From: a virus
Lineage: Duplodnaviria > Heunggongvirae > Uroviricota > Caudoviricetes
Direction: 5' to 3' (one strand)
IMG/VR virus record: IMGVR_UViG_2713896909_000009
Coordinates: 32,673 to 96,672 of that record
Length of the DNA stretch: 64,000 nt
The notes below the pieces were generated by a model. The model had not been told where the DNA came from and ran no database searches. It was given only the letters and a program-made list of their open reading frames with translations. Below are positions 54,734 to 57,540 of this stretch, piece after piece (position 1 is the first letter of the stretch; the number at the start of each line of letters is the position of its first letter). The translations under genes and the position numbers were made by a program.

Positions 54734-55318
54734 GTGAAAATGACTTTCAGAATGAGTGCTGAAGCACAAACCATTCGCGTATTTAATTATCTCGATGGTA
54801 CAAATGAATTTATTGGAGAAAGTGATGCCTATATTCCACCACATACAGGGCTTCCGGCAAACAGCACAGATATTGCTCCTCCTAAGATTCCAGCTGGTTT
54901 TGCCGCTATATTCGACACAACCCGAAACTTATGGAATTTAATAGAGGACCATAGAGGAAAAACTGTTTATCACACTGAAACAGGTGACGCTAAAACTATA
55001 TTTAAATTAGGCGCTTTGCCTGAGGATGTTACGTGCATTCCTCCTGATGATGAGTATCAGAAGTGGAATGGAAATCAATGGGTTACAGACGATGAGGCGA
55101 AGCATCAAGCTCAGATAACCTATGCAAACTCAAAGAAAAATGAGTTGTTAAAGCACGCAAGCGTAGAGATAGCGATCTTACAAGATGCTGTTGATTTATG
55201 TATTGCAACAGATGAAGAGAAAGTTTTATTAAATGAATGGAAAAAATACAGAGTGCTTGTAAATAGGTTAAATGAAGATGACATCATTCAAATGAAAGTC
55301 CCTGAAATACCAGTTTGA
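54734..55318 (+). CDS. tail fibre assembly chaperone (Tfa / U-like)
   Basis: 194 aa with C-terminal LLNEWKKYRVLVNRL pattern typical of Tfa. Confidence 0.7.
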   Translation: MKMTFRMSAEAQTIRVFNYLDGTNEFIGESDAYIPPHTGLPANSTDIAPPKIPAGFAAIFDTTRNLWNLIEDHRGKTVYHTETGDAKTIFKLGALPEDVTCIPPDDEYQKWNGNQWVTDDEAKHQAQITYANSKKNELLKHASVEIAILQDAVDLCIATDEEKVLLNEWKKYRVLVNRLNEDDIIQMKVPEIPV

Positions 55319-55372
55319 TTTATATATTAATAAGCCACTGTTGACAGGACTGTTTTACAGTGGCTTGTTTTA

Positions 55373-56521
55373 TTATCCAAACCAATTTTCTAGAACATTT
55401 TCAAATTTATGGGTAACTTGCCACCATAAATAGTTCTCTAATACATATTTCTTTCCGTTATTTGCAATTTGTTCTAATTTTTCGGAGTGTAATGTTTCAT
55501 ATATATCACTAGCTAAACTTTCTGGCAACATTGGTTCATTTATATGAAATCCTGTATGGTTATTTTTTACAAATTCAACCATTCCACCTCGAGTGCTAAC
55601 TAAAACGGGTTTTCCTGCCCCCATAGCTTCTATAGCAACCATGCAGAACGGTTCTTGAAACTGAGATGGGATTACAACTAGATCGGCTATAGGATAGTAA
55701 CGGTACATATCATCTGGTTTTACCCCGCCAACAAGATGACAACGCGAACCAATAGTTCCAGCAAGTTCCCTTACTTGTTTTTGATATGCAGCTTTTTCTC
55801 CTTTATCTTTATTATTGTAGTCACCAACAACTACAAGTTCTATATTGTCACATGATTTTATCAATTTTTTAAACGCTTGTAATAGTAAAACAGTCCCTTT
55901 TTCAGGGGAGATCCTTCCCGCATAAAAGATAACTTTTTTCTCAGAGGGAATGCCTAAATCTTGTTTTGTTAGCGGGGGTAGCCCTTTATCTAGATTGTGT
56001 GGTTCTGTACCATTAGGAACTATACAAATTTCAGCGTCAGGAAGATGTTTTTCATAAAAATCCTTTAAATACTGACTTGGAACAAGCATTTTCACATTGC
56101 TATCTAGCCCTTTCGGTGTAAAGGCATTATGCATATGCATTATCATTTTTGCGTCAGGAGCTTTCTCTCTAATTTGACGATAAAGTTTCATGCTGTTATG
56201 AACAATAATAATGCTATCGTTTGTGATATTGAAATCTTTAGCAATGTTTAACACTCGTTGTGAATATGGAATAGGATCTATTCTGCTCCATTTTTGAAAT
56301 ATCCGTTTATAAAGACGGCTAAACCCTATTCTATGGATAGAGCATCGCTCATTAACAATATCTTTTTCTGAGAAACCATCCTCTCGAATGCATGCTATAC
56401 GATTTGGTATTCTTGTTCTCTTTGCGACTTGATATATCCAAGTTTCAACAGCTGCTGCGCCACGAGGTGGTATTGAAAATATTGGTGTAACTGTAAATAT
56501 TAATTTGTCAATCATGAGCAA
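55373..56521 (-). CDS. glycosyltransferase family 4 (GT-B)
   Basis: EPFCMVAIEAMGAGKPVLVSTRGG and upstream Rossmann features; low-GC. Confidence 0.8.
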   Translation of the reverse strand: MLMIDKLIFTVTPIFSIPPRGAAAVETWIYQVAKRTRIPNRIACIREDGFSEKDIVNERCSIHRIGFSRLYKRIFQKWSRIDPIPYSQRVLNIAKDFNITNDSIIIVHNSMKLYRQIREKAPDAKMIMHMHNAFTPKGLDSNVKMLVPSQYLKDFYEKHLPDAEICIVPNGTEPHNLDKGLPPLTKQDLGIPSEKKVIFYAGRISPEKGTVLLLQAFKKLIKSCDNIELVVVGDYNNKDKGEKAAYQKQVRELAGTIGSRCHLVGGVKPDDMYRYYPIADLVVIPSQFQEPFCMVAIEAMGAGKPVLVSTRGGMVEFVKNNHTGFHINEPMLPESLASDIYETLHSEKLEQIANNGKKYVLENYLWWQVTHKFENVLENWFG

Positions 56522-57059
56522 CTATCCTCTTATAATCTTTTTCCTTTAAATGTTTTTTTAGGGTTGCGGGAGAGCCCGCATACATTGTATTAGCAGGAAC
56601 ATCAGTATTTACAACGCTATTTGCAGCTATAACACTATTGTCTCCTATTTTTACACCTGGTAGCACAGTTGTATTTGCCCCAATCCAAACATTACGGCCT
56701 ATTTTTATTGGAGCGCAAATTGTTTCTTTGGGACGTTTGCTTGGTGTTAGTGGATGCGTGACAGTTGTTAATACAACGTTGGGGCCAATGGCAGAGTTAC
56801 ATCCAATATCTATTGTTTTTGCATCGAGAAAAACACAATTTGCGTTAATGAAGACCTTTTTATCAATAATTATATTGCCATTCTCAAAATAAAATGGAGC
56901 TGTTATTGTTGAGTCTTCACTTACTTTAACTCCTGTTTTTTTTAATGTGATTAATTTTTTTCTTTTTGAGATCAAGGTATAATTAAATATATGTCTTGCT
57001 TTCTTTGCTTTCTTTTTTTGAAAAATTATATAGAAATAATATGTTAGCAAATCAAACAT
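56508..57059 (-). CDS. hexapeptide-repeat O-acetyltransferase (LacA/WbbJ-like)
   Basis: Left-handed beta-helix repeats (IGCNSAIGPNVVL, IGRNVWIGANTTVLPGVKIGDNSVIAANSVV); overlaps GT4 start. Confidence 0.8.
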   Translation of the reverse strand: MFDLLTYYFYIIFQKKKAKKARHIFNYTLISKRKKLITLKKTGVKVSEDSTITAPFYFENGNIIIDKKVFINANCVFLDAKTIDIGCNSAIGPNVVLTTVTHPLTPSKRPKETICAPIKIGRNVWIGANTTVLPGVKIGDNSVIAANSVVNTDVPANTMYAGSPATLKKHLKEKDYKRIVAHD

Positions 57060-57083
57060 TGTTGTTTTACTTCCATTTAAAAT

Positions 57084-57413
57084 TTAACTATCAAATGTGG
57101 CTCCTATTTCTCGCATTTTGTTAAGTATGATGTTTATTTCATTGCTACCGAGAGAAGTTTGGGCAGCTATGAAAAAAAGTATGTGCAATGACATAGATCT
57201 GTTATTTTCTTTGTTTATATATTTTCTCCACTGGCTATCGCTGCTGACCCCGGCTAGTTCTGCCATTTGATTCCCTGTATACCCAAGCGTTTCTTTGAAT
57301 TGACGCAAATCTTGTGATTTGGGGGGGGTGTAGTTGTTTATTAACCTCATATTAAACCCATTATTGGTAAGCTTTCGTTGGTGTAATGGTAGCACCAATG
57401 GGGCTGCTGTCAA
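57084..57413 (-). CDS. putative HTH (XRE-like) DNA-binding protein
   Basis: LRQFKETLGYTGNQMAELAGVSSDSQWRKYI helix-turn-helix-like segment; start uncertain. Confidence 0.4.
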   Translation of the reverse strand: MTAAPLVLPLHQRKLTNNGFNMRLINNYTPPKSQDLRQFKETLGYTGNQMAELAGVSSDSQWRKYINKENNRSMSLHILFFIAAQTSLGSNEINIILNKMREIGATFDS

Positions 57414-57540
57414 GCGTCTTTTCTTTATAAATATAGGGAGCCATCAAAATCTGACATCAATTATCTATCGAAATATTTTGAATGACTGGTGAGAAGTTAC
57501 TTTGCATACCATTACCTCCTGACAACGTAGGAGGGAACTT

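Follow-up and report, generated by a model that had tools for sequence, protein, structure and literature searches.

We have analysed a stretch of 64,000 nucleotides (here called the window) from the IMG/VR virus record IMGVR_UViG_2713896909_000009. The window is that of a P1-like phage-plasmid, and its segment 55000-57600 is 100% identical to plasmid p2RM9973 of Escherichia albertii RM9973. Between a tail-fibre chaperone gene and lydA it carries three minus-strand genes, which encode a small helix-turn-helix (HTH) protein, a hexapeptide-repeat sugar O-acetyltransferase (AT) and a GT4 glycosyltransferase (below simply GT4). On balance, these genes, at 55373-57413, appear to constitute a self-contained lysogenic-conversion operon that would edit lipopolysaccharide (LPS) at the cytoplasmic face, and that probably masks phage receptors. 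The donor, the acceptor, the expression in lysogens and every phenotype considered below are inferred. Surface-polysaccharide modification by a plasmid prophage, as seroconversion or receptor masking, had been suggested in a preliminary description of this DNA, and modification of this kind is supported by the comparative evidence: GT4 scores above the cut-off of a WaaK model, it falls in a mobile clade of such enzymes, and the relatives of the HTH gene lead glycan-modifying cargo elsewhere.

Lysogenic conversion of LPS is textbook knowledge for O-antigens and for periplasmic enzymes. No description of a core-type, cytoplasmic-face LPS editor carried by phages was found in the literature searched.

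A WaaK-Type Glycosyltransferase outside the waa Clusters

The GT4 gene (55373-56515, minus strand) encodes a protein of 380 amino acids. Its mechanical open reading frame (ORF) begins with a TTG at 56521 (55373-56521), while translation probably begins at 56515, with an ATG that has the Shine-Dalgarno sequence AAGAGGA and agrees with the PGAP call. With the ATG start the GT4 and AT genes overlap by 8 nt (ATGATTGA), and with the TTG start by 14 nt. The G+C fraction is 0.35 in the GT4 gene, 0.33 in the AT gene, 0.38 in the HTH gene and 0.464 in the window as a whole, and reading frames, overlap and base composition all agree with what had been reported at the outset, a pair of overlapping genes on the minus strand within a stretch of low GC content.

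The assignment of the first enzyme to GT4 is borne out by the Pfam family Glycos_transf_1 (3.5e-37), and can be refined to the subfamily of WaaK, the outer-core N-acetylglucosamine (GlcNAc) transferase of LPS. The NCBIfam model NF012028 (PRK15484, lipopolysaccharide N-acetylglucosaminyltransferase) is matched with 657.9 bits, the cut-off being 618, and the alignment runs from end to end, with protein residues 3-381 on profile positions 1-379 of 380. Both ends of the EX7E motif, E288 and E296, are invariant in an alignment of 12 sequences. NF012028 is a model of the type "subfamily", not an equivalog. The waa-cluster WaaK of Escherichia coli R2 is 60% identical to GT4. Judged by its sequence, GT4 is a member of the WaaK/RfaK family, and at 54-63% identity to the members encoded in waa clusters its specificity, that is its acceptor and the linkage it forms, cannot be read from the sequence. 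The reaction that defines WaaK is the alpha-1,2 transfer of GlcNAc from UDP-GlcNAc to Glc II of the outer core.

WaaK adds a terminal alpha-1,2 GlcNAc branch in the outer core of E. coli R2 and Salmonella, and this GlcNAc is required for ligation of O-antigen by WaaL (PMC13293308). The same sugar serves phage Felix O1 as its receptor and is a hindrance to at least one phage specific for rough strains (PMC8744999).

The relatives of GT4 fall into two groups according to where their genes lie. All homologues with at most 63% identity are encoded in chromosomal waa clusters next to waaL: those of E. coli R2 and Shigella are 60-61% identical to GT4, those of Citrobacter, Enterobacter and Silvania 59-63%, that of Salmonella diarizonae 56% and that of the E. 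albertii type strain 54%. All homologues with at least 67% identity are encoded outside waa clusters, in prophages, islands or phage-plasmids. In a neighbour-joining tree these mobile copies form one clade, which is nested in the WaaK family and sister to the R2-type waa genes. When GT4 is compared with the waa copies, its N-terminal half is the better conserved (identity 0.63-0.72) and its C-terminal half the less conserved (0.47-0.58); the N-terminal half of GT-B enzymes is the one that binds the acceptor. A large E. coli cluster at 60% identity, considered as a source of plasmid-borne relatives with WabB of pO157, a core GlcNAc transferase encoded on a plasmid, in mind, consists of the chromosomal R2 waaK and not of a plasmid gene.

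GT4 thus has in common with WaaK (RfaK) a subfamily model matched above its cut-off, the full length of 380 amino acids with the EX7E motif, and 54-63% of its residues. It differs from WaaK in several respects. Its gene is found on a phage-plasmid, with the fibre chaperone gene on one side and lydA on the other, and not in a waa cluster beside waaL; its clade is a separate one, whose members occur in prophages, islands and phage-plasmids; an acetyltransferase and an HTH leader are encoded together with it; and it coexists with the host's own WaaK, so that it probably differs from it in acceptor or linkage.

Copies of GT4 adjacent to fibre or chaperone genes were found in four backbones, those of P1-like elements, of IncFII/P2-like elements, of integrated Salmonella prophages and of IMG/VR contigs. 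To exemplify, pEA32_4 (locus L015) is a 49.5-kb phage-plasmid of E. albertii whose RepA is of the IncFII type and whose tail genes are of the P2 type. Its genes for fibre, macro-domain protein and chaperone are followed by those for GT4 (92% identical) and AT (67% identical), both of which converge on the chaperone gene. In an integrated Salmonella prophage a small ORF, AT and GT4 converge on chaperone, macro and fibre genes, and in an IMG/VR contig the order is macro, chaperone and GT4, without AT.

Salmonella has, in addition, a WaaK paralogue 67% identical to GT4 (7001-8143 of loci L013/L014), in a prophage region near an integrase, an SMEK_N protein and a P2-type fibre with its chaperone. 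This paralogue is very widespread (2,509 index blocks) and is not the same gene as the waaK of the waa cluster (about 55% identity). No publication on it was found. Lone island copies of GT4 occur in genomes of the Salmonella arizonae type, where a copy of the HTH gene with 62-63% identity precedes GT4. Among deposited phage genomes no record matches the cassette at the DNA level, and the sole tblastn matches of GT4 there are two Salmonella records mis-filed as phage.

Co-inheritance with the Fibre Tip

The two enzymes are linked to the receptor-binding end of the tail fibre. Window positions 53035-57059 correspond to pEA32_4 in one unbroken block of 4,044 bp with 85% identity, which begins inside the fibre gene S, about 270 codons before its end, and finishes exactly at the AT start codon. 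The block spans the fibre tip, the macro gene, the chaperone gene, GT4 and AT. From this follows that the fibre tip and the two enzymes have moved as a unit between two unrelated phage-plasmids of one host species.

In the comparison with pEA32_4, where the synonymous divergence dS is 0.6, the ratio of non-synonymous to synonymous divergence (dN/dS) is 0.066 for GT4, 0.14 for AT, 0.15 for the chaperone and 0.12 for the macro protein. Ratios this low at this divergence mean that all four genes have been kept by purifying selection. Among 5,426 complete genomes of E. coli the full module is present in 9-10, and in every case a plasmid carries it.

The linked part of the fibre module occupies 53035-55318 on the plus strand, and consists of the C-terminal, receptor-binding part of S, the macro gene (53846-54715) and the chaperone gene U (54734-55318), with Pfam matches to Macro and Caudo_TAP. 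For its binding to the outer core the S fibre of P1 uses the terminal glucose (10.1101/2022.07.24.501295).

Varied Cargo behind an HTH Leader

Of the features of this slot, the HTH gene is the most telling marker. Relatives of the HTH protein were found in at least 110 IMG/VR contigs, and 80 such loci were fetched and examined. In about 28-30 of these 80 viral loci the gene directly downstream of the HTH gene encodes an Acyl_transf_3 protein, which in some cases also has an SGNH domain. In a further ten it encodes a hexapeptide acetyltransferase, three being of the window type with GT4 and two being followed by HtrL_YibB. A downstream gene is absent or short in about 17 loci, and a few have other genes. 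In Citrobacter braakii the HTH gene precedes one for a WaaZ_KDO_III protein and in Serratia one for an AT3 enzyme, both convergent on tail or fibre genes, and in Salmonella it precedes a WaaK-like GT4. AT3 is the class to which the classical O-antigen acetylases of phages belong, among them Oac, OafB and OacD (PMC9558356).

In the loci inspected in detail, the HTH-led cargo is envelope-glycan-modifying and convergent on tail or fibre genes. The assignment of the window enzymes to the same functional class is thereby supported, by an argument that is independent of their own family names. The opposite-strand position behind the chaperone gene is a cargo hotspot. The AT family is also found there alone, without GT4, in Mu-like Salmonella prophages and in one Serratia prophage. 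No PADLOC defence-system model matches GT4, AT or HTH.

The slot also holds other genes. In a common lambdoid prophage of E. coli sequence type ST131 (NZ_CP103672; 6402-8301 of locus L060), which has the same trio of fibre tip, macro and chaperone genes, it holds a convergent pair encoding a reverse transcriptase and a SLATT-domain protein, which looks like defence-type cargo. In the P1-like phage JL22 (ON018986; 2860-3336 of locus L050) a different hexapeptide protein, a "serine acetyltransferase" of 158 amino acids (sacF), is encoded convergent on tfa, and this phage keeps cin and the alternative fibre. A survey of P1-like phages left the presence of the JL22 serine acetyltransferase unexplained and described lydC-cin-Sv'-U'-U-S as a variable region (PMC9603915). 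The JL22 gene fits the pattern of fibre-adjacent acetyltransferases.

The Acetyltransferase and the Leader Protein

AT (56508-57059, minus strand) is a sugar O-acetyltransferase of 183 amino acids of the LacA/Maa type, with a left-handed beta-helix. It matches the Pfam family Hexapep with 7e-15 and LacA in the Protein Data Bank (PDB; 1kqa) with 5e-28, and its His102 is aligned to the catalytic His115 of LacA. LacA and Maa are its closest solved relatives. The scores for the corresponding NCBIfam equivalog models all fall below the cut-offs: 105 against 314 for Maa, 103.6 against 347 for LacA, and 72.6 against 243 bits for WbbJ. From its sequence, AT is a family member of the LacA/Maa/NodL type and not an orthologue of any named enzyme. 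The enzyme had at first been called LacA/WbbJ-like; it resembles LacA and Maa and is not an orthologue of WbbJ.

The lysine-rich N-terminus of AT (56930-57010, minus strand) is encoded by a tandem repeat of 9 nt, AAGAAAGCA, together with runs of A7 and A8. The repeat is present in two copies in the window and in three in CP070291, and the change is in frame. The A8 run is shortened to A7 in one record, in a manner indistinguishable from a sequencing error. On/off switching of AT by slippage may occur. A frame-shifting tandem repeat of the NeuO type is absent from the 5' coding region of AT, which has the in-frame repeat and the A7/A8 runs only.

The leader gene (57084-57350, minus strand) encodes an XRE-type HTH protein of 88 amino acids and matches phrog_20491 with 9e-25. 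The ORF of 109 codons at 57084-57413 owes its extra length to mechanical extension. Its alignment with about 100 homologues, which have 86-90 amino acids, starts at Met22, and the product is for this reason taken to have 88 residues. The small HTH protein gene noted earlier is thus real, lies upstream of AT and GT4, and is part of the operon.

The HTH protein matches the Pfam family HTH_31 below threshold (E = 0.008; 16.9 bits, where the cut-off is 27) and has no match in NCBIfam; its homologues are named "XRE family transcriptional regulator" in their source records. An AlphaFold2 model of the protein has five helices and a pLDDT of 84.3. The top PDB matches of this model in Foldseek are all of the XRE type (Aca1, Aca2, C-proteins of restriction-modification systems, SinR and HipB), with probabilities up to 0.98 but E-values of at least 0.07. 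The protein resembles Aca proteins and C-proteins in its size, in its five-helix XRE-type fold and in coming first in a cargo operon; it differs from them in that these fold matches are weak and in that most of its relatives are preceded by a terminator rather than by a promoter of their own.

Candidate Signals of the Operon

Read from the promoter candidate, the order of the operon is HTH, AT with a GGAAG Shine-Dalgarno sequence, and GT4, on the strand opposite to the flanking late genes. The sigma-70-like promoter candidate at 57386-57413 (minus strand), upstream of HTH, has TTGACA, a spacer of 16 nt and TG-n-TACCAT, which amounts to 10 of 12 matches and an extended -10 element. At the other end, between the convergent genes for GT4 and chaperone, a hairpin at 55332-55366 is a candidate bidirectional terminator, with folding energies of -15.9 kcal/mol on the minus strand (z = -4.8) and -21.2 kcal/mol on the plus strand (z = -5.2). 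A pattern scan called no terminators in the region; it missed this hairpin because the loop is branched, and the hairpin was spotted by eye and confirmed by folding.

When 57351-57540 was read for Dam/GATC sites of the kind that govern phase variation of gtr, none were seen. In most other HTH-led cassettes an ORF of 51-57 codons, encoding a hydrophobic C-terminus, and a strong GC-rich terminator stand directly before the HTH gene (for example L005, 7465-7620, and L069, 3791-3964); both are absent from the window.

Position of the Operon in the P1 Backbone

The flanks of the operon encode the P1 proteins S (tail fibre), U (chaperone), LydA, LydB, Hdf and DarA. In P1 (NC_005856) the gene order is S-U-U'-Sv'-cixL-cin-lydC-lydA, and in the window it is S-macro-U-[GT4<-AT<-HTH]-lydA, so that lydC-cin-cixL-Sv'-U' has been replaced by the three-gene operon. 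P1 homology restarts, with 97.5% identity, at 57481 (right junction 57481-57540, plus strand, preceding lydA), and the late promoter LPdar is expected just past this point, at 57495-57513. Neither a Cin-like ORF nor LydC was found in the whole 64-kb window, and there is only one chaperone gene in it. That the cassette takes the place where P1 carries the cin inversion system had been stated at the outset; the two gene orders, the restart of P1 homology and the absence of Cin show this to be correct.

A trace of the former switch is left in the fibre gene S, where a cix-like site at 51769-51788 (plus strand; TCCAATACCTTGGTTTAAGA) differs from P1 cixL at two positions, occurs once in the window, and lies in a region with 88% homology to the cixL/Sv' junction of P1. 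This site is a leftover of a Cin inversion system whose invertase and partner site are gone. The cassette and the P1 Cin system thus occupy exactly the same position, between fibre chaperone gene and lydA, but their functions are unrelated: a recombinase ORF, a second cix site and an alternative Sv'/U' are all missing from the 64 kb, so that the cassette cannot be assigned to the Cin system or its C-segment.

Discussion

Taken together, the data suggest the following sequence of events. The operon would be transcribed against the flanking late operons, probably from a sigma-70 promoter of its own, and the DNA-binding HTH protein would most likely set its level of expression, by analogy with the leader regulators of the Aca and C-protein types. 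GT4 and AT are predicted to be two soluble enzymes acting at the cytoplasmic face. GT4, a retaining enzyme of the WaaK type, would most likely transfer GlcNAc from UDP-GlcNAc to a glucose of the lipid A-core before this is flipped, the acceptor and the linkage being deduced from the family. AT would use acetyl-CoA to O-acetylate a sugar hydroxyl of LPS or of another envelope-glycan intermediate, perhaps that of the newly added GlcNAc. The altered core would change phage binding, and most plausibly hide the receptor of the adjacent fibre together with those of other core-binding phages. A masked receptor would protect the lysogen from superinfection, and would spare the progeny from being lost on lysogenic siblings.

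That masking of receptors is the most plausible selected function follows from three circumstances in combination: fibres of the P1/Mu type bind outer-core sugars, the GlcNAc added by WaaK makes or hides phage receptors, and the fibre tip is inherited together with the enzymes. Since the cassette stands at the place of the Cin switch, the phage would have one fixed fibre and a receptor editor instead of two alternating fibres.

Consider, then, a wider reading that we put forward tentatively, as less likely than not. Temperate myoviruses of Enterobacterales would share a widespread and unrecognised system, in which an XRE-type leader and interchangeable LPS editors (WaaK-like GT4, WaaZ-like, HtrL-like, hexapeptide or AT3) stand behind the fibre chaperone gene, and in which fibre tip and editor pass together, as one unit of recombination, from one phage to an unrelated other. 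On this view the mobile WaaK clade would be a phage-adapted converter of the LPS core, working at the cytoplasmic face, and to edit the receptor would be the alternative, in P1-like phages, to switching the fibre with Cin.

Several points weigh against the proposal that the operon edits LPS to mask receptors. The E. albertii type strain has a WaaK homologue (54% identity) in its waa cluster, and so has Salmonella; since the host already has WaaK, the phage GT4 would be redundant unless its acceptor or linkage differs. The loci with AT alone indicate that AT does not need the product of GT4. The trio of fibre tip, macro and chaperone genes is present without the cassette in about 1,600 complete E. 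coli chromosomes (about 84% identity), which means that the linkage to the fibre is not obligatory. Promoter-like sites are as frequent in the region as expected from shuffled sequence, so that 57386-57413 is only a candidate, and no operator or promoter conserved across the family was found upstream of HTH; the upstream region of the window HTH gene cannot be aligned to those of relatives. Most copies of the cassette are intact, and several are not: single-base frameshifts in homopolymers (runs of A6, C6, A8 or C8) are present in CP117651, CP070291, CP148313 and CP148442, ISKpn26 is inserted in the 3' part of AT in CP117630 and within the cassette in CP104510, and in GmM062, a P1-like plasmid of E. 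coli, IS1 truncates GT4. The frameshifts, which are all in long-read assemblies, could be sequencing errors. On WaaK-like genes in prophages or phage-plasmids no paper was found in the library searched, and RefSeq merely names the gene.

A different beneficiary is conceivable. The same LPS editing may serve the bacterium, where an altered core or a change in how O-antigen is attached would affect serum, bile, antimicrobial-peptide or immune recognition in the gut of birds and mammals, with exclusion of phages as a side effect. As the main account of the operon we regard this as unlikely, and it does not exclude receptor masking. The carriers are gut isolates from wild birds, poultry, pigs and humans, the GlcNAc of WaaK controls O-antigen ligation by WaaL (PMC13293308; PMC8744999), and NeuO, a prophage-borne acetyltransferase, shows immune as well as phage phenotypes (PMC13001214). 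The tight and repeated linkage to fibre tip and chaperone in unrelated phages is, however, easier to understand if the function concerns the phage receptor, and the cassette's rarity among the complete E. coli genomes also speaks against this reading.

The substrate, rather than the beneficiary, could be another one. The enzymes may act on a different glycan intermediate at the cytoplasmic face, such as an O-unit linked to undecaprenyl diphosphate, enterobacterial common antigen or colanic acid, and the operon would then be a serotype converter of the classical kind. This seems quite unlikely to us. It agrees with the "subfamily" rank of NF012028, with the presence of WbbJ and WcaF among the next-best named relatives of AT, with the prevalence in the HTH-led loci elsewhere of AT3, known for O-antigen acetylation (PMC9558356), and with the WaaK that the hosts already carry. 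It agrees less well with the position of GT4 inside the WaaK family, where the R2-type waa genes form its sister group, with the good conservation of its domain on the acceptor side, and with the WaaZ-type core enzyme that takes the same slot in Citrobacter.

That the operon is a passenger without current function, low-GC DNA acquired horizontally in a recombination hotspot and now decaying, is highly improbable. The insertions, the truncation of GT4 and the frameshifts in four records would be expected in this case, as would the unrelated cargo that the slot holds in other phages. But dN/dS is 0.07-0.15 at a dS of 0.6, the reading frames are intact in four backbones and several host genera, and the frameshifts, being all single-base homopolymer changes, may be long-read errors. 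That the enzymes glycosylate or acetylate fibre proteins or DNA, and so serve the virion or the phage genome, is exceedingly improbable: the weak match of GT4 to the Pfam family GT4-conflict (6.7e-13), and the vicinity of fibre genes and a macro-domain protein, are set against a far stronger match to WaaK, the lack of any PADLOC match, a strand opposite to that of the late operons, and closest relatives that are also found as lone chromosomal island genes without phage structural genes.

Under the preferred reading, modification of LPS so as to mask phage receptors, the operon has two kinds of counterpart among known conversion systems. The first is NeuO of prophage CUS-3 in E. coli K1, like AT a prophage-borne, soluble hexapeptide-repeat O-acetyltransferase, which acts in the cytoplasm on a glycan of the cell surface and makes the cell less susceptible to phage (PMC3046976; PMC13001214) and which has been proposed to act in superinfection exclusion (PMC13001214). 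NeuO (PDB 3jqy) is a detectable relative of AT at 2e-10, with LacA and Maa much closer. AT differs from NeuO in having no heptanucleotide repeat for phase variation, in its likely substrate, which would be LPS and not polysialic acid, and in that a glycosyltransferase and an HTH leader go with it.

The second kind comprises the gtrABC modules for glucosylation and the AT3 acetylases Oac, OafB and OacD of phages such as P22, SfII, Sf6 and BTP1. These too are cargo of temperate phages, the LPS they alter keeps the carrier phage and its relatives from adsorbing, phage AT3 O-acetylases block the action of tailspikes (PMC9558356), and in many relatives of the cassette an AT3 enzyme takes the HTH-led slot. 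They are, however, integral membrane enzymes that work on the O-antigen from the periplasmic side, and they are usually encoded next to int/attP, whereas the window cassette encodes two soluble, predicted cytoplasmic-face enzymes, one of them a core-type glycosyltransferase, beside a fibre chaperone gene on a plasmid prophage. None of its three proteins matches the flippase GtrA, the bactoprenol glucosyltransferase GtrB or the membrane protein GtrC, and AT, a hexapeptide protein, has no integral-membrane Acyl_transf_3 domain.

Masking of core receptors by the cassette, if it takes place, would shape the range of phages able to infect its carriers among E. albertii, E. coli and E. fergusonii, therapeutic phages and transducing ones such as P1 among them. 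Ligation of O-antigen could change as well, and with it the serotype and recognition by the immune system. The block of fibre tip and editor, together with the HTH leader, would offer a simple genomic signature by which receptor-editing cargo can be found in prophages. The very common Salmonella paralogue with 67% identity makes the question testable in a model organism.

Two neighbouring features remain to be described. The macro-domain protein between S and U (53846-54715, plus strand) has 289 amino acids and matches Pfam Macro with 2e-19 and phrog_2613 with 2e-136. The stop codon of S overlaps the ATG of its gene, and its C-terminus repeats GAHSH motifs that resemble the HxH repeats at the fibre tip. 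The chromosomes that have the trio without the cassette rule out the macro protein as an obligatory partner of GT4, and no literature on a macro domain in a fibre module was found. In GmM062 (1-3985 of locus L059) a further polysaccharide set, with a GT4 protein, an NAD-dependent epimerase, a glycosyltransferase and an acyltransferase, lies beyond the IS1 element, and an ars operon is inserted after lydB.

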